Positions 3,269 through 55,903 of a DNA stretch of 55,942 nucleotides are shown in pieces. The DNA comes from a virus. Its lineage: Duplodnaviria > Caudoviricetes. Positions within the stretch are counted from its first letter, which is position 1, and each line of letters opens with the position of its first letter. The position numbers and the translations under genes were made by a program. Below the pieces are notes generated by a model. That model was not told the origin of the DNA. It saw only the letters and a list, made by a program, of their open reading frames with translations, and made no database searches. The stretch is from positions 1-55,942 of the IMG/VR virus record IMGVR_UViG_3300042893_000841, one strand, 5' to 3'.

Positions 3269-4070
3269 ATATAAATTATTGGTTCCAACAACGGATAAAC
3301 AAATAAATATTCCTATTGAAATAAAATGGGATTTTACTGAGCGCGACCAGGCAATTGACGTATATCAAGAACAAATTGTTGGGGATTTAATAGGAGAACC
3401 AACAGATTTTGAATTATCAAGATTTTCACATCAGTCTTATTTACCACTAAATGGTGGAACAAATTTACAAACAAGTGTTAATTATGAATTTAACTTTTTT
3501 GATAGTGGTCAAACAATAAATAACCCAGCGGCTTGGATAAATAGTTATCGATACGAAGGATTTTCTGCGTCGGATATATATTATTACATAAAACCTTTTA
3601 CAAAATCATTCTTTAAGTTGGATTTTTATGATACAAGAATCGACGCATCACAAACAAATTATTTTACAATAATATTACCAGTACAACAAGGTGATTTTGA
3701 AACTGTCACAATATCCCAATCTTTATCTAACATAAAAATTCGTAAACCAAAATTCAAATTAGATTTTGTTGGTGATAAAGAAGGGTTTTTTATTTATTGG
3801 TTAAGGAACAGAGGTTATATTGATATGGACGAATTCTATATGTCAGCTAAATTTTTTGATGCAAGAACTGGTGTGTATGTTAAAATGATGAATAGACCAC
3901 AAGGATCGTTATCAGGAAACTATTATACATTTAATGGGGAAGATTTTTTCTATTACAAAGTTAAATTAGATTATAATACAAAAACATATCAAGTATTTTC
4001 AACTGTAACAGGAAACCAGGTTGGGACCGACATAAACCCAATTTTATGGTATGAATACCTTAACCCTTAA
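3255..4070 (+). CDS. Putative virion structural protein (271 aa)
   Basis: Overlaps upstream gene; operon context. Confidence 0.5.
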   Translation: MSVSKYKLLVPTTDKQINIPIEIKWDFTERDQAIDVYQEQIVGDLIGEPTDFELSRFSHQSYLPLNGGTNLQTSVNYEFNFFDSGQTINNPAAWINSYRYEGFSASDIYYYIKPFTKSFFKLDFYDTRIDASQTNYFTIILPVQQGDFETVTISQSLSNIKIRKPKFKLDFVGDKEGFFIYWLRNRGYIDMDEFYMSAKFFDARTGVYVKMMNRPQGSLSGNYYTFNGEDFFYYKVKLDYNTKTYQVFSTVTGNQVGTDINPILWYEYLNP

Positions 4071-4072
4071 TT

Positions 4073-5245
4073 ATGGAAGAACAAAAATATTATTTTAAAA
4101 TATCTCCGGAAAACATTGAGGCGGATCTTATTATTGTTGATTATACTGCAAGTACCGAAACCAATTATGAAATAGATCCTTGTTGTCCAATAACTGCAAT
4201 AACAACAAATGTTATTACTGGTAGTACTGGGGTTTATACCGGAATGACTTATATTTTGTCAGGAGGAACAAATGGCGAATCTTTATTAACGTGTTTAACA
4301 ATACCATTACTATTTACTGAAACCGCAATTGACTTTGGGTACTATACTCCATTTGATGGGGCGGCAATACAAAAGGATACTATAACTAACTTTTTGTATT
4401 CAGCAACAACCGCCAACCCTTATGATGTATTATTTTTTAACACATCAGATGAAGGGTTAAAGAAATTTTTATCACTATGTACTTTTGTTTTAGATTGGGG
4501 GGACGGTTCACCACTTTTTACATTAACAAATACCACACCTGTTTTACATACTTACCCTGCGGCAACAACACAATATGAAATTATATTAACTTGTTATTCA
4601 CCATGGGGAATATCCACAGTTACAAAACCTGTTAATATACCGTATACTGACGTTATAATACCTAACTCAGGGGGTACCGCATATTTTACTGCCTTTGGTT
4701 GTAATTGGACAGGAACACCAGTTAGTTACGATTATATATTTACTGGGGACTCAAACACATCAATTGATGATTATGATAGTAGTACATTTACTACAGTACC
4801 TTTTTTAATTACAGGGTATACACAAAGTACTTTGAGTGATTTATCACAATACGGACCAAAATACAATTTATTTGGAGGTAAATATAAATTAAATATTCCA
4901 GTAACAGGGACCTCCGCGAGTTACGGAATTGTATATGGACCAGACCCAACCAATACCTATACCGCATATACCGTAAATGATATTTTATATTGGGATATTA
5001 ACGACGGGACTACAATTTATTTTATTTCTTCTTATGGTATAGATAAGGATGAGTATGTTTTGTCAGCATTAACAAAAAATGAAGCATTATTAAATGTAAT
5101 TGATGAACCACAAATACAATCTGAATTATTTATTGAAAGGGGTAAAATTTCTGGGTTAGAGGCGTTACAAAGGTTGGGGGAGGTTGATAATTTAGGTGAT
5201 ATAACAAAATATGGTTATGGATACTTTAATGTCAAAAAATACTGA
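4073..5245 (+). CDS. Putative structural protein with PKD/Ig-like domain
   Basis: DWGDGS...HTY motif typical of PKD domains; Thr-rich. Confidence 0.55.
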   Translation: MEEQKYYFKISPENIEADLIIVDYTASTETNYEIDPCCPITAITTNVITGSTGVYTGMTYILSGGTNGESLLTCLTIPLLFTETAIDFGYYTPFDGAAIQKDTITNFLYSATTANPYDVLFFNTSDEGLKKFLSLCTFVLDWGDGSPLFTLTNTTPVLHTYPAATTQYEIILTCYSPWGISTVTKPVNIPYTDVIIPNSGGTAYFTAFGCNWTGTPVSYDYIFTGDSNTSIDDYDSSTFTTVPFLITGYTQSTLSDLSQYGPKYNLFGGKYKLNIPVTGTSASYGIVYGPDPTNTYTAYTVNDILYWDINDGTTIYFISSYGIDKDEYVLSALTKNEALLNVIDEPQIQSELFIERGKISGLEALQRLGEVDNLGDITKYGYGYFNVKKY

Positions 5246-30906: not shown

Positions 30907-30926
30907 ATAATTTTTTATACTTTTTG

Positions 30927-30957
30927 TTTGGCGGTTTAAAAAAAATCATTATCTTTG
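30927..30957 (+). promoter_or_regulatory. Bacteroidota housekeeping-type (early) promoter
   Basis: TTTG-N19-TATCTTTG (-33/-7 consensus). Confidence 0.75.
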
Positions 30958-30980
30958 TAATGTATCTAAAACGAAATATT

Positions 30981-40022: not shown

Positions 40023-40955
40023 ATGAATGTTCAGGATCATTATTCTGTTTTAGGTGTTGAAGAAACCGCAACTCAGGAAGAAATAAAAAAAGCGTATAGA
40101 AAGTTAGCAAAAGAAAATCACCCAGATAAAGGGGGAGATGAAGAGTTGTTCAAACAGATATCGGGAGCTTACGATATTATTGGAGATGAAAATAAAAGAC
40201 AACAATATGACCACCAAAGAAAAAATCCATTTGCCGGAATGGGGGGTTCACATGCCGATTCAATGAGTGATTTATTTAATCAGGCTTTTGGTCACCAAAG
40301 ACAACAACAAAGAGTTCATACCACAAACCTAACTATAAATGTTGGCGTATTAGAATCTTATCTTAGTGATAAAAAAGAAATTAACTACAAGAGAAAAACT
40401 ATGTGTGAACCTTGTGGTGGTAATGGAGGTGATAAAAAAGTTTGTGTTGTTTGTAATGGGGTTGGTCAAGTTATAAGACAAATGGGTAGTGGTATGTTTA
40501 TACAAGTGGTTGCAATGACTTGTGAAGGTTGTAACGGTAAAGGTAAAACAATAACAAACCCTTGTTTTGTGTGTAATGGAAGTGGAGATAAAGATGAAAT
40601 AAAAAATATTGAAATAAAAATACCTCATGGTATTGATAATGGTCAGTTTTTTAGATTACAAGGAATGGGGGATTTTAGAAATGAGGTATTTGGAGATTTA
40701 ATTGTTAGAGTAAATCTGGAACCACAAGATAATTTTGATAAATATGAGAATCATTTAGTTTATAATGCGTATTTTGATTTGGACGACATTAATAAAAACT
40801 CATTTGATATACCACATCCTGAAGGTAAACTTAACATTAAGTTCCCTAAAACGTTTGATACGTCAAAACCATTGAGAGTAAAAGGTAAAGGATTTAAAAC
40901 CCAGGTTATTGGGGATTTAATGGTTAATCAATATGTGAAGTTTCACAGGGATTAA
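40023..40955 (+). CDS. dnaJ: DnaJ chaperone
   Basis: J-domain with HPD, four CxxCxGxG repeats, C-terminal GDL substrate-binding domains. Confidence 0.93.
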
Positions 40956-41113
40956 AATAATGAACTAATATCCTTAATCAAGGATACTATACCATAGATT
41001 GCCAGTGTAAACATAACACCACCAAAAATAAAAACAAATCTTTGTGTTCTAACGGATCCTTTATCTGTCTTACAAGATTGACATCCTACTTTTGTTGCTT
41101 CTTTTTTTTCCAT
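40952..41113 (-). CDS. Small CxxC membrane protein (53 aa, [15 protein letters not shown]...), missing from ORF track
   Basis: Open frame just downstream of 41122 gene; CQSC plus one TM. Confidence 0.6.
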
Positions 41114-41121
41114 AATTTAAG

Positions 41122-41598
41122 TTAATTGTGATAAATAATAATATCACCTCTTACAATTTTAGTAAAGTTATTTTTAATAAATTGTTCTTTTATGATTGTA
41201 TCACCATTACTTGTGATTATAACTAATGTGTTTTGATTTTTTATGTTTAGTTTTTGTGGGTGTTTAATGGCGGTTGCAATATTTAGTTTATATTCACCGT
41301 CATCAAAGTGTGGGTAAATGATAAAATCAAATCCATTCCAATTATCCCTAACAAAAATAGAATCTTTTTTACGGTTTACAATGACATCTTTAGCGACATT
41401 ACTGATAATATCGTCAAACTCAAATACAATATCCCCCAAATCCTCAAAGTTAGGTCTTGATTTTAATGATATTGGATTATTAGCAATTTGAGTATGATCT
41501 GTAGCAACAATATTAAATACATCACCCTCTTTCTCAAAAGAACCTAAGGTTATCCTATCCTCTACTATTAAGGATTTTAATACTGAAAGTAGTTTCAT
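41122..41598 (-). CDS. Hypothetical (probable virion-internal) protein
   Basis: Start taken at MKLLSVLKSLIVE, after TATTTAT (41604-41610) and the terminator. Confidence 0.6.
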   Translation of the reverse strand: MKLLSVLKSLIVEDRITLGSFEKEGDVFNIVATDHTQIANNPISLKSRPNFEDLGDIVFEFDDIISNVAKDVIVNRKKDSIFVRDNWNGFDFIIYPHFDDGEYKLNIATAIKHPQKLNIKNQNTLVIITSNGDTIIKEQFIKNNFTKIVRGDIIIYHN

Positions 41599-41611
41599 AT
41601 TATATAAATAT

Positions 41612-41638
41612 AAAAACCCCCCGAAAAAACGGAGGGTT
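41612..41638 (-). terminator. Intrinsic terminator of candidate ncRNA
   Basis: AACCCTCCG-loop-CGGGGGGTT followed by a U-tract on the minus strand. Confidence 0.8.
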
Positions 41639-41832
41639 CTACAAGATAGTTTGTCCAATTGAGGAAGGTCTCTATCTAACCCGAATCGTTTTCCATCACC
41701 AGATTCTCGGCAGTCAGCTTTCAAGTGGGAGGGCTGACATTCCCTTTGCGTCGACACACCCAACACCAGGCGGTCAGATTGTAAATTAGGATTTCTGACA
41801 TCCTTGTTTTCAGTAGTGTTAACCACATCAAC
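41612..41832 (-). ncRNA. Candidate structured non-coding RNA (~220 nt)
   Basis: GC-rich island with several hairpins, flanked by a Bacteroidota promoter and an intrinsic terminator. Confidence 0.65.
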
Positions 41833-41836
41833 AATA

Positions 41837-41867
41837 CAAAGATAGTGAAGTTTTTGGTTCTGCCAAA
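41837..41867 (-). promoter_or_regulatory. Bacteroidota-type promoter driving the candidate ncRNA
   Basis: TTTG-N19-TATCTTTG on the minus strand. Confidence 0.75.
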
Positions 41868-41898
41868 ACGTTTGTAATTTTTTTTTAAAAAACTTTCA

Positions 41899-41927
41899 TT
41901 GACTGATTACCATAAATATCTTATATT
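41899..41927 (+). promoter_or_regulatory. Sigma70-like promoter of dam
   Basis: TTGACT-N17-TATATT. Confidence 0.55.
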
Positions 41928-41933
41928 TTATCT

Positions 41934-42773
41934 ATGTTAAGTTATATTGGTGGTAAGAGTAAGATCGGAAAGTGGATAGTCCCTTTCTATGATAAGAATA
42001 TGGAAACGTATGTTGAGACGTTTGGAGGAATGTTTTGGTGTTTTTATAATATGGACTTGAAAGAGTTCCCTAACCTAAAGAAAGTTGTTTACAACGACTT
42101 TAACCCATTGAACTACAACTTATTTAAGTGTATTCAAAACCCAACAGAGTTATTGAAGGCAATCAACTCAATTGATTGTCAAAAATTTGGTGAGGTACCA
42201 ACCCCACCATTATATAAAGAACAATTTATCAGGTTCCAGGCTGAAATATTTAATGAAGGTTTCAACGTAAAACCTGAAGATTACGAAGTTGCTGCAAAAT
42301 ATGTTTACATTTTAACTCAAGTATTCAGTGGATCAAAACCTGAGACAAGTTCTTTTATTGACCTTAAAGGTAAGTACAAGTCAAAGTATTTGACGTTTAG
42401 AGATAAACTATTAAAACCGGATTGGATAGAACATTTCTTAAAGATAACTCACGTTGAGAATATGGATTTTGCTGAGGTTATTGAAAAGTATGATTCACCT
42501 AACACTTATTTTTATGTGGATCCCCCATATTGGAAAACAGAGAACTATTACTCCAACCATGACTTTGATCGTCAAGACCACGAAAGACTTTCAAAATCTT
42601 TAATAAGTATGGAAGGTAAATTCAGTTTATCATATTATGATTTTCCTTTATTATCCGAATGGTTTCCAAAAGATACATATACCTGGGAGAAAAAAGAATT
42701 CGCTAAAGCGGCAGCAGCAAAGAAAGGAACAAAACAAAATATGGGTGAAGAATTATTAATAATGAATTACTAA
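41934..42773 (+). CDS. dam: Dam-family (D12 class) N6-adenine DNA methyltransferase
   Basis: YIGGKS, YVETFGG, NDFN, DPPY, SYY, ELLIMNY. Confidence 0.85.
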   Translation: MLSYIGGKSKIGKWIVPFYDKNMETYVETFGGMFWCFYNMDLKEFPNLKKVVYNDFNPLNYNLFKCIQNPTELLKAINSIDCQKFGEVPTPPLYKEQFIRFQAEIFNEGFNVKPEDYEVAAKYVYILTQVFSGSKPETSSFIDLKGKYKSKYLTFRDKLLKPDWIEHFLKITHVENMDFAEVIEKYDSPNTYFYVDPPYWKTENYYSNHDFDRQDHERLSKSLISMEGKFSLSYYDFPLLSEWFPKDTYTWEKKEFAKAAAAKKGTKQNMGEELLIMNY

Positions 42774-42817: not shown

Positions 42818-44881
42818 ATGGAATTACTTGGTATTTTATCTAAGGTAGTAAAAGAAAACGTAAACGTTAAAAGGATATTATTAGAATATCCAGAATCTAC
42901 TGTTAATAAATTGGTTGCAAAGTTTTTAAAACAAACTGAAGATAGTGAAGATAATATAAAATTAGTTATTTCTGATTTTGAAAGATTTAAAGGTGGTTTT
43001 GCTATAGATGAAAAAAATGAACTTAAACAACTTAACAACGAGTTAAAAACTTTAGAACCGTCCTCTCAAGATTATAAAGATTTACAAACTAGAATTCGTG
43101 ATTTAAATAAAACGGTACAAGATACTTTAGACATATTTAAGTACGACTATGAGAGTTTAAAAAATCTGACTGCGGATAAGTCGACAAAACAAAAAACAAA
43201 AAAAGACCTTGAAAGTATTGCTCAAGAGTTTGTAACAAAATATAAAGGAACAGATTTACAATTAGTTAAATTAAATATTAAAAAATATTTTGAATTAAAA
43301 ACTTTATTCCCAGAACAAAAAGTGTTTAAAAAGGAGGTAACCGAATACACACCATCACAATTAAATGATATTTCATCAAAATTATTCTCAAAGTTTGATG
43401 AACGAGGAGAAAATGTCTTAACCAAAAGAATTACCGAAAAGTTTGCAAAAGAAAATCCGGACGACGACCAAATGACGGTAATCCTACCAAGAGCTAAAAG
43501 ATTTGTTAAACACTATGCGTTAATACCATTAAACACTAAATTAGTTGCTTATATGTCATTTGATGATTTTGAGCACATAGTTGATGGGTATACCCCAATG
43601 GAGGAAGACGAATATAGTTTACCTGAGATTGATTTAGGTGATGTTGATGTTGCTTATGAGGATGACAATATCTTAATATTTGCTCCGGATGAAAAACAAA
43701 AATGTATTAACATTAGAAAGAAACACGCTCCAGATAGAAGATGGTGTACATCTTGGGAAGGATCAAGTAACTATTATTACAATTATAGATTAAATCAAAA
43801 CTTAACGCTATATTATGTTATTAGTAAAAATTTACCAGAATCTGATTTAAATTATGCGGTTGTTGTTCTTGTTGATAGATATGGGGAAAAAAGATTAGCA
43901 GATGGTTCTAACTCCGGAAGGTTTGCTGGTAGTACGGTTATTCCTTGGAGAGAAATGGTACAGAAGGTACCGGCATTAGATGGTAAAGAACGATATCTTG
44001 AAGCTAAACCATATAGTGCGGAAGATAGTGATAAAATGCAAAGATATAAGTCATATAATTTAACTACAACCGACCCTATTAGTGAATTGGGTAGTATTGA
44101 AGAGGTTGAATTATGGATAGAATTAAGAGGACCTGACTTTAGAAATATGTCAATGGGAGATGAAATATTCTCTAACTTACCGGAGGAATTACAGAGAAAG
44201 TATATAGGTTTAGGTAGTGAGTTAAGCGCCGGAATGGTTAGAGGACTTAAAGAAGGTGCAATGACTTACTATGTTTCTAAAAAGAAAGAAAAGTTACTTA
44301 CAAAAAGGTTATCAGAAATATCTGAAAATGATATGCAGGTTATTTTGAGTAAAGAAATGAGACCATATTTTAGACAATTAAAAAGAAAATATTCAGAAGA
44401 ACTTGAAACTAGTTTTGATCCTGAGTTTATTCCAATATCATATCCTAGCGATAATAACGCTAAATTTGCCAGAATGTTTGGGTTAGAAACGTTATTTGAC
44501 CTATTACCGGATAATACAGAATTTTTACAGATTGAAAATAAATCAAAAGATAGTGTAATTTATACTATTCCAGAAACAATAGGTAAATTAACAGAATTAA
44601 CAACTTTAGTTTGTGATAACATTATTAGAGAGTTGCCAGAAGCAATAGGTAATTGTAGACAGATGATATTTTTAAATTTGACAAATAATAAAGAATTGAA
44701 TACACTTCCAAAAAGTATTGCCAAACTAAGTTGTTTGGACTTTATTTCTGTTATGGGGTCTAATATTGAGATTGACAACCTACCAAAAGATATTTTACCG
44801 TATATGGATCCTACATCGGATTTCTTTACGGTTAATTTCCCAGCAAAAATGAAAAAACACTGTAATTCAGAAACAAGTTAA
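42818..44881 (+). CDS. Large protein with central WCTS domain and C-terminal leucine-rich repeats
   Basis: IPETIGKLTELTTL, LPEAIGNCRQMIFLNL, LPKSIAKLSCLDFI LRRs; N-terminal VVKE/ILLE; TATTTAT upstream. Confidence 0.7.
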   Translation: MELLGILSKVVKENVNVKRILLEYPESTVNKLVAKFLKQTEDSEDNIKLVISDFERFKGGFAIDEKNELKQLNNELKTLEPSSQDYKDLQTRIRDLNKTVQDTLDIFKYDYESLKNLTADKSTKQKTKKDLESIAQEFVTKYKGTDLQLVKLNIKKYFELKTLFPEQKVFKKEVTEYTPSQLNDISSKLFSKFDERGENVLTKRITEKFAKENPDDDQMTVILPRAKRFVKHYALIPLNTKLVAYMSFDDFEHIVDGYTPMEEDEYSLPEIDLGDVDVAYEDDNILIFAPDEKQKCINIRKKHAPDRRWCTSWEGSSNYYYNYRLNQNLTLYYVISKNLPESDLNYAVVVLVDRYGEKRLADGSNSGRFAGSTVIPWREMVQKVPALDGKERYLEAKPYSAEDSDKMQRYKSYNLTTTDPISELGSIEEVELWIELRGPDFRNMSMGDEIFSNLPEELQRKYIGLGSELSAGMVRGLKEGAMTYYVSKKKEKLLTKRLSEISENDMQVILSKEMRPYFRQLKRKYSEELETSFDPEFIPISYPSDNNAKFARMFGLETLFDLLPDNTEFLQIENKSKDSVIYTIPETIGKLTELTTLVCDNIIRELPEAIGNCRQMIFLNLTNNKELNTLPKSIAKLSCLDFISVMGSNIEIDNLPKDILPYMDPTSDFFTVNFPAKMKKHCNSETS

Positions 44882-54585: not shown

Positions 54586-54626
54586 AAAGCCCGCAAAATT
54601 TGTAAAAAAATATTTGTGGGTTTTTT
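54586..54626 (+). terminator. Intrinsic terminator
   Basis: AAGCCCGCAAA...TTTGTGGGTTTTTT. Confidence 0.65.
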
Positions 54627-54656
54627 GTTTTTATAAGAATAAAATGTTTATATTTG
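54624..54656 (+). promoter_or_regulatory. Bacteroidota-type (early) promoter
   Basis: TTTG-N21-TATATTTG. Confidence 0.6.
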
Positions 54657-54660
54657 TACT

Positions 54661-54936
54661 ATGAATAAAACAGGATATAATATTAGAGTGATAAACGAAA
54701 AGATGGGTGAATTCATCAACGAGACATTTGTTGACCAACTACAATTTAAATTGTTTTTAAAAATGGTACACGGATGTATTGAATTGGGTGAAGACCTATC
54801 ATTCTTTAATGGGACTACTTTTTTGGTACACATACCAAATAAAATTCTTAAGGATAGTGTTGTAATTACCACAACTAAAGAGGTAAGTATTGTTGAACAA
54901 GTTAAAAGCAAAATTGAGGCTTTTGTAACCAAATAA
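54661..54936 (+). CDS. Hypothetical protein
   Basis: Immediately follows the promoter. Confidence 0.6.
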   Translation: MNKTGYNIRVINEKMGEFINETFVDQLQFKLFLKMVHGCIELGEDLSFFNGTTFLVHIPNKILKDSVVITTTKEVSIVEQVKSKIEAFVTK

Positions 54937-55447: not shown

Positions 55448-55477
55448 AAAAGGAATCAGAAATGGTTCCTTTTTTTT
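55448..55477 (+). terminator. Intrinsic terminator
   Basis: AAAAGGAATC-loop-GGTTCCTTTTTTT. Confidence 0.75.
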
Positions 55478-55506
55478 GTTTTATTAGAAAATTATTCTTA
55501 AATTTG
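55475..55506 (+). promoter_or_regulatory. Bacteroidota-type (early) promoter
   Basis: TTTG-N20-TAAATTTG. Confidence 0.6.
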
Positions 55507-55510
55507 TTTT

Positions 55511-55903
55511 ATGGAAAAAATGTTATATTTAGTTAGAGGAATACCAGGAAGTGGTAAGTCTACATTTGCAAAACAATTAGCCCCAAATTGGGTTTTTGAA
55601 GCAGACCATTATTTTTATGATAAAAATGGGAACTATAATTTTATTGCGTCTGAAATAAAAGAGGCACATAAAGAGTGTCAAAAATATGTTGGATACGCGA
55701 TGGAGTCAAACACACCAAAAATTGCCGTATCAAACACATTTACACAAGAGTGGGAATTACAACCTTACTATGAGTTGGCGATTAAATACGGTTATTATGT
55801 AACTTGTATTGTGGTTGAAAATAGACACGGAGGTGTAAACCAACACGGAGTACCTGAAGAAAAAGTAGAACAAATGAAAAACCGTTTTGAAATAAAATTA
55901 TGA
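55511..55903 (+). CDS. P-loop kinase (AAA_33 / polynucleotide-kinase-like)
   Basis: RGIPGSGKST, EADHYF, AHKECQ, VSNTF, HGVP. Confidence 0.85.
   Translation: MEKMLYLVRGIPGSGKSTFAKQLAPNWVFEADHYFYDKNGNYNFIASEIKEAHKECQKYVGYAMESNTPKIAVSNTFTQEWELQPYYELAIKYGYYVTCIVVENRHGGVNQHGVPEEKVEQMKNRFEIKL

Follow-up and report, generated by a model that had tools for sequence, protein, structure and literature searches.

This study identifies a gene for a structured non-coding RNA of about 225 nt, located on the minus strand at 41836-41612 of a 55,942-nt stretch of viral DNA (IMG/VR record IMGVR_UViG_3300042893_000841), referred to here as the window. Judged from the sequences of its relatives, this RNA gene is genuine, previously uncatalogued and modular, and is found in large freshwater phages. 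The parts of the RNA follow one another as a 5' hairpin, one or two units of 57-61 nt, a third module related to the units and a terminator (Table 1). In each unit, a GUCAG/CUGAC hairpin that may form an H-type pseudoknot comes first, and a second hairpin, whose loop is of the GGUGA type, comes after it. A first-pass annotation of the window had proposed such a structured RNA with a repeated motif, and the promoter, hairpins, third stem, terminator and GC-rich island that it listed all lie where it placed them. The proposal is now supported by homologues, by covariation among 44 distinct units and by a contig from an RNA library.

Table 1. Features predicted for the RNA gene and the linked open reading frame in the window
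Feature	Positions	Strand	Basis
Promoter: TTTG (41867-41864), 19-nt spacer, TATCTTTG (41844-41837)	41837..41867	-	sequence
Predicted non-coding RNA, ~225 nt	41612..41836	-	homologues, covariation, no conserved ORF, metatranscriptome contig over 41660-41812
5' hairpin, UUGU...ACAA closing an inner GUGG/CUAC stem	41805..41836	-	folding of relatives
Unit 1 core, candidate H-type pseudoknot	41773..41804	-	model R1, E 9e-20
Linker hairpin 1, GUGUUG/CGACGC, loop GGUGUGU	41748..41766	-	covariation
Unit 2 core	41713..41744	-	model R1, E 1.4e-14
Linker hairpin 2, GAAUC/GAUUC, 14-nt loop including GGUGA	41683..41706	-	covariation
Third module: GGGUU, stem AGAUAG/CUAUCU, loop with ACC-UUCCU	41644..41682	-	homology
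Intrinsic terminator AACCCUCCG-UUUUUU-CGGGGGGUU, then U run	41612..41640	-	terminator prediction
TATTTAT motif, 5 nt before ORF ATG	41604..41610	-	recurrent motif
Linked ORF, 158 aa, MKLL family, N-terminus MKLLxxLKxLIxE	41122..41598	-	RelE/RegB-like fold, weak

The two promoter elements form what we take to be the -33/-7 pattern of a Bacteroidota sigma-A type promoter, and from these signals the 5' end of the predicted RNA is expected a few nucleotides past 41837. The layout TTTG-N19-TAnnTTTG is retained upstream of most homologous RNAs. At the other end of the gene, the terminator stem (41640-41613) has 11 pairs followed by a U run, and terminator stems covary among the relatives, in agreement with the annotation of a host-type promoter and a terminator belonging to the RNA itself. 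Terminator-like sites in the 2-kb region number three against 0.8 expected. The GC content is 0.48-0.51 over 41650-41799 compared with 0.22-0.30 in the flanks. Folding of the single sequence gives a z-score of only -1.4, and 20 of 200 shuffled sequences fold equally well. The window sequence alone does not set the RNA clearly beyond chance, and the proof comes from its relatives.

These relatives are present in dozens of freshwater phage contigs. Among viral contigs we found 18 unique homologous RNAs of 136-230 nt, and 41 of 48 pattern matches in metagenomes are real copies. The phages that carry the RNA form a freshwater clade of roughly 290-305 kb whose promoters are of the Bacteroidota type. 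When 185,579 species genomes were scanned for the pattern, no homologue was detected; the three matches, in unrelated GC-rich genomes that lack the flanking features, were judged to be chance hits. The RNA therefore does not evidently imitate an RNA of the host. In a lake metatranscriptome (X2), a 172-nt contig with a depth of 48.4 covers 41660-41812 with one mismatch. None of the four metatranscriptome runs yielded anything covering 41302-41636 or 41838-41904, and the other three (X1, X3 and X4) matched only parts of neighbouring genes, at 90-99% identity, with no contig on the RNA.

Structural analysis of the units reveals the same arrangement of strands in both copies of the window, which model R1 recognizes as two diverged units; among the 18 unique RNAs of viral contigs, 11 contain just one unit. 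The stem of unit 1, GUCAGA/UCUGAC (41799-41794/41778-41773), has an A-rich loop at 41787-41779, and the upstream AGGAU (41804-41800) is able to pair with AUCCU in the loop (41792-41788). The stem of unit 2 is GUCAGC/GCUGAC (41738-41733/41718-41713), with GGGA (41744-41741) able to pair with UCCC in the loop (41730-41727). The third module, whose stem lies at 41677-41672/41649-41644, has the strand order of the units, and its GGU and ACC could pair, so it is possibly a degenerate pseudoknot; L004-type RNAs have a homologue of this module in their 3' part. As annotated before, UCC occurs in all three loops of the window RNA. The 5' segments of the relatives differ in sequence, and despite this all 13 unique ones fold into a hairpin, with minimum free energies of -2.2 to -9.3 kcal/mol.

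The covariation check in homologues gave a strong positive result. Over the 44 distinct units, 92.3% of the cells pair, compared with 80.4% in shuffled alignments (reached in none of 500). The covariation score is 0.375; shuffled alignments score 0.158, again with none of 500 reaching the observed value, and slid partners do not exceed 0.167. In the linker hairpin, all six pairs show compensatory double changes and 96.5% of the cells are paired. The convincing sites of covariation are the hairpins at 41766-41748 and 41706-41683, the 5' hairpin and the terminator, and the G-U pairs are compatible with the minus strand only. By contrast with these freely varying adjoining stems, the GUCAG/CUGAC core is almost invariant across the 44 units, as are its UCC and A residues; such a nearly invariant core must be recognized by something specific. 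The compensatory A-U to C-G change that the first-pass annotation had read from the window falls on pair six of the GUCAG stem. Relatives do not keep it: this pair is AU in 13 units, CG in six, unpaired in 20 and gapped in five. Judged by eye from a list, 42 of 42 unit contexts would allow the upstream flank to pair with the loop. In alignment A3, the four flank-loop pairs are 91.7% paired and there is one double change only (AU 17, GC 4), which stems entirely from one diverged unit type. Covariation has shown that the unit hairpins exist, while the alignments are compatible with a unit pseudoknot in which the UCC loop pairs with the upstream AGGA or GGGA and the A-rich segment is the third loop.

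The RNA matches none of the catalogued families that we searched. Rfam 15, with its models for riboswitches, 6S, RNase P, SRP and known phage motifs, gave no match at the gathering score over the entire window, and no riboswitch family matched even at E <= 10. The best scores within 41400-42000 were rimP with 21.5 bits (cut-off 47), lying on the terminator, and Bacilli-1 with 20.7 bits (cut-off 55.6), on the promoter region. ARAGORN detected no tRNA or tmRNA gene in the whole window, in keeping with the first-pass annotation, which did not recognize the RNA as a tRNA, tmRNA, RNase P or known riboswitch. In blastn searches against annotated phages, the matches overlapped the RNA by only 10-14%, by chance, and the dam matches were distant. 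A literature search on non-coding RNAs of Bacteroidetes jumbo phages offered nothing relevant. By a term search, a report on freshwater bS21-encoding Bacteroidota phages (PMC9723584) mentions Flavobacterium twice and contains no mention of non-coding, intergenic, promoter or DnaJ.

Downstream of the RNA, with a gap of about 15 nt between the terminator and its ATG (41598), lies an ORF of the MKLL family, a hypervariable family of 158-170 aa whose types share only 27-50% identity. We counted the linkage of RNA and ORF at 80 loci picked solely by a neighbouring dam gene: 20 have both, one has the RNA only, three have the ORF only and 56 have neither, the loci being related and the counts not independent events. 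Hence the ORF is present in 20 of the 21 RNA-bearing loci. The RNA class also follows the ORF subfamily, as GUCAG-type RNAs always accompany A2-type ORFs and L004-type RNAs accompany A4-type ORFs. No A2-type ORF without the RNA was found among the dam-anchored, ORF-side and metagenome loci, several of these records being fragments, and an ORF-side profile search, which used a narrower alignment of the family, placed 10 of 10 full-length ORFs on RNA-carrying contigs. A4-type ORFs lack the RNA at three of 11 dam-anchored loci (L011, L013 and L051), and no unit occurs elsewhere in these three records, which are only 17-49% complete. The RNA-ORF pair also occurs in a second context, after a NUDIX gene (L124 and L149), and again in L141, there with the ORF in convergent orientation.

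The neighbourhood of the RNA is nevertheless far from uniform, and the segment between dam and a small membrane-protein gene is highly variable. In viral contigs a co-oriented gene always lies 3' of the RNA. The genes found downstream include an MKLL ORF, one for a small membrane protein, one encoding an acidic product and one of 297 aa. The RNA persists at loci that have lost the ORF or lack it (L057, L120, L095 and L119), and 14 of the 38 assessable metagenome loci have no co-oriented ORF, among them L187 and copies with only a small membrane-protein gene following. The next gene is convergent in L141 and L171, and in L141 it is an ORF that shares the N-terminal region of the family. L187 carries the module 4 nt ahead of a tRNA (Rfam tRNA, 36.7 bits), with no terminator, and L150 carries two separate RNA copies 1 kb apart; a tRNA scan of six relative loci found one distant tRNA-Asp (L150) only. 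The description of the RNA as stand-alone in the first-pass annotation thus fits its own promoter and terminator and the ORF-less copies, but not the tight linkage to an RNase-like ORF at the dam-anchored loci.

The MKLL protein itself has no recognizable relatives by sequence, since single and profile searches of the ORF against Pfam, PADLOC, PHROGs and PDB sequences returned nothing significant; the ESM Atlas gave no usable match, and Foldseek against PDB gave nothing at E <= 0.001 (best E 0.29). Two independent structure models of the family have pLDDT values of 79 and 79.8, and both list RelE, ParE, HigB, YafQ, YoeB, BrnT, CdiA-CT RNases and T4 RegB among their matches. RelE (2khe) scores Z 4.8 (rmsd 3.8, 77 residues aligned) in one model and Z 5.1 (rmsd 3.5, 80 of 89 aligned) in the other, RegB (2hx6) scores Z 3.0 and 3.4, and many ParE, HigB and YafQ matches fall at Z 3-4.4, all of these values, at or below 5.1, being under the reliable level of the tool and perhaps reflecting a common arrangement. 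In BFVD the ORF matches a RegB-like phage 'site-specific RNA endonuclease' at E 0.06. In these models the MKLL protein weakly but repeatedly resembles RelE/RegB endoribonucleases. A speculative idea, set aside, likened the N-terminal motif to a signal for capsid targeting or proteolysis such as T4 internal proteins have. The TATTTAT motif in front of the ORF precedes the ATG of about nine window ORFs by 5-7 nt, as well as the related ORFs without RNA in L011 and L013, and it is a possible separate phage-specific promoter or start signal. The idea that it marks late or structural genes found nothing informative in PHROGs, where one of 10 TATTTAT-preceded genes was named (NUDIX hydrolase).

We tentatively favour the reading, possible though short of probable, that the RNA is a putative trans-acting partner or inhibitor of the RNase-like MKLL protein. 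Host RNA polymerase would start at TTTG/TATCTTTG and stop at the intrinsic terminator to give a discrete RNA of about 225 nt, which we infer from the sequence signals and the one metatranscriptome contig. This RNA would work in trans as a protein-binding RNA, with the neighbouring hypervariable MKLL protein of RelE/RegB-like fold as its presumed partner, and copies that have no ORF could still neutralize related RNases. Against this reading count the weak fold matches, the A4-type ORFs that lack the RNA, the many RNAs with one unit, and the promoter-like TATTTAT between the terminator and the ATG, given which the RNA and the ORF need not be co-transcribed. With the tight linkage at 20 of 21 loci, a role as partner or antitoxin-like RNA is no less likely than the free decoy, and the putative 'antitoxin mimic' role suggested earlier is, by analogy, compatible with the data. 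A more elaborate form of this reading, which we regard as speculative and unlikely, is a new jumbo-phage toxin or immunity module, in which a pseudoknot array made early from the host-type promoter neutralizes the RelE/RegB-fold endoribonuclease, while orphan and tRNA-fused copies serve as decoys for related RNases, be they from rival phages or from abortive-infection systems of the host.

By analogy, the locus, in which RNA repeats are followed by a terminator and an RNase-like gene, is laid out like a type III toxin-antitoxin module such as ToxIN, CptIN or TenpIN, which likewise has a promoter, repeated RNA units, an intrinsic terminator and, in the phage case, a gene for about 160 aa close behind. 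In the available part of PMC3401426, ranges for unit length, copy number and protein size of type III loci are tabulated, and their components are described as typically 1-50 bp apart. The phage units of 57-61 nt, the roughly two copies in some relatives and the ORF size fall within these ranges, as does the gap of about 15 nt between terminator and ATG (PMC3401426, in the same part). A palindromic terminator separates the repeats from the ORF over short distances in the phage locus too, the phage RNA may form pseudoknots, and in both the RNA can outlast the protein gene. However, the MKLL protein matches no ToxN, CptN, TenpN or AbiQ model in Pfam or PADLOC, and its weak fold matches are to RelE, ParE and RegB rather than to the Kid/MazF-like ToxN. 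ToxN, CptN and TenpN are absent among the structural matches, an absence that, according to the tool, does not exclude the family. The phage units also differ in being diverged and interspersed with covarying hairpins, with a single unit at many loci; a separate promoter-like motif precedes the ORF, A4-type ORFs also occur without the RNA, and the carrier, instead of being a bacterium or a plasmid, is a jumbo phage that looks lytic.

Other known systems share single features with this locus. As modelled, the MKLL protein compares with T4 RegB and the RelE/YoeB toxin fold in being phage-encoded, about 155 aa long and built on a beta-alpha-alpha-beta-beta-beta core with an extra N-terminal helix, but it has no sequence similarity to them, its matches lie below the trusted level, and T4 regB has no known RNA partner. 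The similarity of RegB, RelE and YoeB is described, and the idea of an anti-RegB partner raised, in the available part of PMC3014915; our literature search found no RNA antitoxin of a RelE-like toxin. The pseudo-ToxI of PhiTE, an antitoxin-mimicking phage RNA that corresponds to the 'antitoxin mimic' of the first-pass annotation, is, from the portion of PMC3475682 at hand, comparable as a phage-borne repeat RNA that could neutralize an RNase toxin, whereas here an RNase-like gene is linked and the genome scan found neither a host toxin nor a host RNA with the motif.

The reading that we favour has to be weighed against an independent, stable, trans-acting RNA whose invariant pseudoknot-like core would recognize a conserved factor of the host or the phage, for instance as a decoy or sponge for a host defence or RNA-binding protein, or which would be processed alongside tRNAs, the ORF being cargo of a variable island. 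The invariant GUCAG/CUGAC, UCC and A residues beside freely varying stems suggest a conserved partner, and, since the core stays invariant across ORF types at 27-50% identity, not a variable protein, which argues against the MKLL protein as the partner. Retention of the RNA without the ORF, the metagenome loci lacking a co-oriented ORF, the convergent gene in L141, the tRNA in L187 and the two copies in L150 point the same way, as do the promoter and terminator of its own and the variability of the region between dam and the membrane-protein gene, where 56 of 80 loci carry neither element. Against such independence stand the strong linkage to the ORF family in three arrangements and two genomic contexts, the match between RNA class and ORF subfamily, and the absence of a homologue from the species-genome scan, no candidate host partner being known; we hold it to be a serious but rather unlikely explanation. 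That the sequence codes for an N-terminal extension of the downstream ORF, starting at GTG 41826, or is neutral DNA with chance hairpins, is hardly credible. Its frame is open from 41826 through the ORF in the window, and the single-sequence z-score is modest; however, the window's is the only one of the 18 homologues with an open frame across the RNA, the other 17 have stops in every RNA-strand frame, and no protein-level conservation of the extension exists. This explanation is already contradicted by these stops and by the compensatory changes in several helices, and also faces unit lengths that differ by non-multiples of three, a conserved promoter and terminator, and an RNA-library contig of high depth confined to the region.

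A cis-acting leader appears improbable. Its modules would respond to a ligand or protein, or would alter RNA polymerase, and thereby determine if transcripts from the early promoter run past the terminator into the next gene, as with a riboswitch-like attenuator or a put-like antiterminator. Small H-type pseudoknots with an A-rich loop are a typical shape of small aptamers; those of preQ1-I and SAM-II have the strand order stem 1, stem 2, stem 1', A-rich loop, stem 2', and the put RNA of HK022 is an element just past an early promoter and before a terminator. The strand order of our units and the succession of promoter, structured element, terminator and, about 15 nt on, an ATG resemble these, RNAs of viral contigs always precede a co-oriented gene, and GGGUU of the third module could pair, by eye, with the AACCC that opens the terminator. 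However, this pairing shows no compensatory change, L118 having AGGUU against an unchanged AACCCC, and neither a covarying antiterminator nor a consistent regulated gene, as expected of a riboswitch or attenuator, was found. The downstream genes differ and belong to no conserved regulated class, the RNA also occurs where nothing co-oriented follows (convergent genes in L141 and L171), in L187 a tRNA follows without a terminator, and the ORF keeps its TATTTAT start motif and occurs leaderless in L011 and L013. The absence of any riboswitch family match at E <= 10 argues in the same direction.

To our knowledge, few structured non-coding RNAs of phages are described, and almost none from uncultured freshwater Bacteroidota phages, which are abundant; the present RNA is widespread in its phage clade and has an unusually clear modular grammar. 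If it restrains the RelE/RegB-like MKLL protein, the range of RNA antitoxins would widen to include a new toxin fold and lytic phages, and neutralization of a RelE/RegB-fold endoribonuclease would make it the first RNA antitoxin for that toxin superfamily, bearing on the question, posed for T4, of an antagonist to RegB-type nucleases. Should the RNA act on its own, it would be a candidate decoy for a factor of hosts whose phylum, as far as we know, lacks classical RNA chaperones. Either way, it is a defined RNA family that could enter Rfam.

Some minor points concern location and repeats. The stable RNAs C and D of T4 are small and lie in a tRNA cluster; most loci of the phage RNA have no nearby tRNA and the window has none, but the RNA can adjoin a tRNA gene, as in L187, and is likened to them by location alone. 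Pairing of the RNA with the start of the ORF mRNA was dropped as an idea, as the window's 8-nt complementarity is, by eye, absent in L012. A CRISPR-like mini-array was rejected, the window units being only about 60% alike with covarying hairpins between them. Tandem Repeats Finder reported no repeat in the window, and in the relatives it reported 2.1 copies of 57 nt at 93% in L058 and 2.0 copies of 92 nt at 83% in L124.

Between a promoter and a terminator, the minus strand beside the divergently transcribed dam gene carries a stretch of about 225 nt, whose features are collected in the table below. The promoter matches a pattern, TTTG-N19-TATCTTTG, which is of the Bacteroidota -33/-7 type. 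Three terminator-like sites, including that of the RNA, occur in the 2-kb region, where shuffled sequences give 0.8. The GC content is 0.48-0.51 across 41650-41799 and 0.22-0.30 alongside, and every stem and loop described in the first-pass annotation was found at its position. The window RNA taken alone folds barely better than shuffled sequences (z = -1.4; 20 of 200 shuffles fold equally well), and the case for an RNA therefore rests on comparison with its relatives. CheckV rates the window, an IMG/VR virus record, as 19% complete and related contigs of 290-304 kb as 97-100% complete, which makes the window virus a jumbo phage.

Features of the RNA gene, the adjoining ORF and the TATTTAT motif in the window
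Feature	Position	Strand	Remark
Promoter TTTG	41867-41864	-	then 19 nt, then TATCTTTG at 41844-41837
RNA, about 225 nt	between promoter and terminator end	-	read from sequence
Unit 1	41806-41746	-	model R1, E 9e-20
Unit 2	41745-41686	-	model R1, E 1.4e-14
Terminator	41640-41612	-	AACCCUCCG-UUUUUU-CGGGGGGUU and U run
158-aa ORF, start ATG	41598	-	downstream of TATTTAT 41610-41604
TATTTAT sites	12807, 14503, 14607, 36450, 50350	+	among others
TATTTAT sites	54073, 50076, 41610 (41610-41604), 19615	-	among others

The relatives were pooled from dam loci and from three pattern scans of viral contigs. Among the 522 dam relatives in IMG/VR the best 80 were taken as anchored loci; the region upstream of dam is highly variable among them, and blastn with the RNA finds matches in 21. 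Two groups resulted: a GUCAG-type group with 18 unique RNAs of 136-230 nt from viral contigs, and an L004-type group, named after one locus, which has the promoter, 5' hairpin and 3' module in common with the first and differs in the middle. One metagenome scan added 48 stretches, namely 41 with a unit, six unrelated chance matches and one partial copy without the GUCAG core (L165). All copies keep the same order of promoter, 5' hairpin, one or two units, third module and terminator. The 5' hairpin varies in sequence, and 13 of 13 unique 5' segments fold as a hairpin. Each unit reads AGGA-U-GUCAG-(2-4 nt)-UCCU-(A-rich 9-10 nt)-CUGAC and continues into a hairpin with GGUGA or GGUGUGU in its loop; after the two units of the window, the next best match to model R1 there has an E value of 0.83. 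The two units of L058 are a recent duplication (57 nt, 2.1 copies, 93%), and the duplicated piece in L124 comprises a unit and a third module (92 nt x 2.0); Tandem Repeats Finder did not detect the window units, which are too diverged. Some metagenome copies combine GUCAG units with an L004-type module (L147, L150, L155, L163), and others combine them with a different 3' module (L141, L156, L171), so that the RNA is combinatorial. Several of the contigs with L004-type fusions have structured non-coding regions that exceed 300 nt in length. One complete 304-kb genome has exactly one unit; L150 holds two separate copies about 1 kb apart in one phage (5498-5558 and 6561-6621, minus strand).

Comparison of these sequences argues for a conserved structure. 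Across a model-based alignment of 44 distinct units, 92.3% of cells pair, against 80.4% in shuffled alignments, and the covariation score is 0.375 against 0.158 in shuffles and at most 0.167 with slid partners; none of 500 shuffles reaches either value, counts that are not probabilities because the sequences are related and their alignment favours the model structure. In the linker hairpin all six pairs show two-sided changes, and 96.5% of cells are paired in these units; energy minimisation folds 19 of 20 unique linker segments into a hairpin at this place, L125 folding otherwise. Two 21-unit alignments, one by MAFFT and not structure-fitted, the other to the model, agree with this result. 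The covariation in homologues that the first-pass annotation had proposed as a check is thus present. Its own compensatory pair did not hold up: this is the sixth pair of the GUCAG/CUGAC stem, unpaired in 20 of 44 units. That stem is nearly unvarying, its two central pairs being invariant and the adjoining ones conserved in 42 and 43 of 44 units. Read by eye, the 5' flank could pair with the loop in 42 of 42 unit contexts (AGGA:UCCU, AGGAU:AUCCU or GGGA:UCCC). The unit core may accordingly be drawn as an H-type pseudoknot, which remains a proposal because a single compensatory type (AU 17, GC 4) backs this pairing. In most relatives the third module, GGGUUGAUnACCyCAA...GAAAUAAU, includes an 11-nt mini-hairpin whose arms covary (AUUC/GAAU, ACUU/AAGU, AUCC/GGAU, ACC/GGU) and which is too weak for prediction alone. 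The terminator stems covary as well, and the G-U pairs of the helices are compatible only with the minus strand.

Judged by its reading frames, the region is non-coding. An open frame crosses the RNA in the window only, the other 17 of 18 homologues being interrupted by stops in each of the three RNA-strand frames, and units vary in length by 1-4 nt; protein-level conservation of the upstream ORF extension, which the first-pass annotation had named as evidence against an RNA, is absent. Its view that the RNA belongs to no known class agrees with Rfam 15, which gives no match in the whole window at gathering scores and, at E <= 10, only far-sub-threshold matches on the terminator and promoter. 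ARAGORN calls no tRNA or tmRNA in the window, and annotated phage genomes contain nothing similar to the RNA except short chance overlaps. A motif scan of 185,579 prokaryote species, one genome each, returned three matches, all rejected: they lack the flanking features, and their number is about that expected by chance. The parts of the literature consulted on RNA antitoxins of RelE-like toxins and on ncRNAs of Bacteroidetes jumbo phages hold no account of this element.

Seven RNA runs contain small shares of a 2-kb query, and four were compared in detail. In a lake metatranscriptome (X2), a 172-nt contig with adapter letters at its 41660 end covers 41660-41812 with one mismatch at a depth of 48.4, and dam pieces, 90-95% alike, have depths of 3.6-8.8; such contigs do not rank genes by depth or give strand or ends, and DNA carry-over is possible. 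Positions 41302-41636 and 41838-41904 are covered in none of the four runs. The X2 contig is compatible with an abundant short RNA, short of proof. It is the only contig over the RNA and lies wholly inside it, with one end after the 5' hairpin and the other in the third-module loop; it may be a processing product or some other defined fragment, or just one amplified molecule.

Among 1.84 billion representatives, 26 are related at E <= 0.001 to the 158-aa product encoded downstream, which has no sequence match in Pfam, PADLOC, PHROG or PDB. The seemingly distinct ORFs that follow the RNA form one hypervariable family, here called MKLL, with 27-51% identity to the window protein (one near-identical exception, 88%), a common N-terminus MKLLxxLKxLIxE and a few polar residues that are nearly invariant. 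A distant branch of it is formed by the ORFs downstream of L004-type RNAs (hhalign 90.5%, E 1.4e-6). AlphaFold models of two different members (pLDDT 79.0 and 79.8) agree in topology. RelE, ParE, HigB, YafQ, YoeB, BrnT, CdiA-CT RNases and T4 RegB recur among the highest-ranking structural matches, all of them weak; the best match is RelE (Z 5.1, rmsd 3.5, 80/89 residues), RegB reaches Z 3.0-3.4, and Foldseek finds no significant match in PDB and a RegB-like phage endonuclease in BFVD at E 0.06. From these models the family may be a RelE/RegB-like endoribonuclease, a lead to which we give about even odds. The 687-aa ORF on the far side of dam (42818-44881, plus strand) starts with MELLGILSKVVKE, resembling the family N-terminus, and the two may share an N-terminal signal; the T4 internal-protein targeting sequence could offer a comparison. 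Internal deletions in L057 and L120 (also L177, L080/L140) join the first codons of the ORF to the last 16 or so (NNFTKI..GDIIIY); L057, L120 and L177 retain an intact RNA, and L080 has lost it together with most of the ORF.

The 80 dam-anchored loci comprise 20 with RNA and ORF, one with RNA only, three with ORF only, all of the distant branch, and 56 with neither. These counts, and those that follow, are not independent events because the genomes are related and partly from the same assemblies. A protein-side search gave 10 full-length matches, all in contigs where the RNA had already been found. Among the 41 metagenome copies a co-oriented family ORF lies downstream in 24 (one a short remnant) and is missing in 14; in the other three the contig ends too early. 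Of the 14, four are followed only by a small CxxC membrane-protein gene (L145, L166, L185, L188), which in a fifth, L177, comes after a fused ORF remnant. Four others precede a convergent ORF (L141, L156, L171, L182) that, as inspected in L141, has only its N-terminal 42 residues in common with the MKLL family. In L187 (9433-9628), one more of the 14, 4 nt and no terminator separate a unit and third module from a downstream 98-nt tRNA, which has a long insertion (36.7 bits to the Rfam tRNA model, cut-off 29; no ARAGORN call). The RNA-ORF pair recurs in L124 and L149 in a second context, downstream of a NUDIX gene and with a further ORF intervening.

Type III toxin-antitoxin loci are defined by RNA units, a terminator and an RNase gene (PMC3401426); the order of RNA and RNase-like ORF matches this layout, and the sizes fit. 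We consider it possible, if somewhat short of probable, that the RNA is a partner or inhibitor of the RNase-like protein. A partnership in trans is favoured because A2-type ORFs, those found with GUCAG-type RNAs, are never seen without the RNA, which itself occurs without the ORF, because RNA class matches ORF branch, and because the association persists after a change of orientation. The partnership is weakened by an RNA core that is invariant across very different ORF types, by frequent orphan RNAs, one of them before a tRNA, by distant-branch ORFs without RNA and by weak fold evidence. It is also weakened by the TATTTAT between terminator and ATG, which suggests that the ORF has its own start signal. 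An independent trans-acting RNA with another, conserved partner is somewhat less probable than the partnership, a cis leader of the ORF is quite improbable, and next to no weight goes to the region not being an RNA.

About nine ORFs in the window have TATTTAT 5-7 nt upstream of their ATG, and the sites at 41610 and 50076 are each directly 3' of a terminator. The motif could be a phage-specific promoter of nearly leaderless mRNAs, or a start signal. Host-type promoters, TTTG-N19-21-TAnnTTTG, occur at 30920-30962, 54620-54663 and 55470-55513 with the -7 box ending 2-4 nt before the called ATG, which points to leaderless early mRNAs or to start codons located farther downstream. A conserved gene encoding about 53 aa (40952-41113, minus strand, and relatives), with two CxxC pairs, a C-terminal membrane helix and no PHROG match, always comes next after the variable region, and a DnaJ-like gene (40023-40955) converges on it. 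In L124, paralogous acidic ORFs starting MKILITEN (2123-2674 and 4011-4493) stand on either side of the NUDIX-RNA region; one of the two separates the RNA from the MKLL-family ORF.
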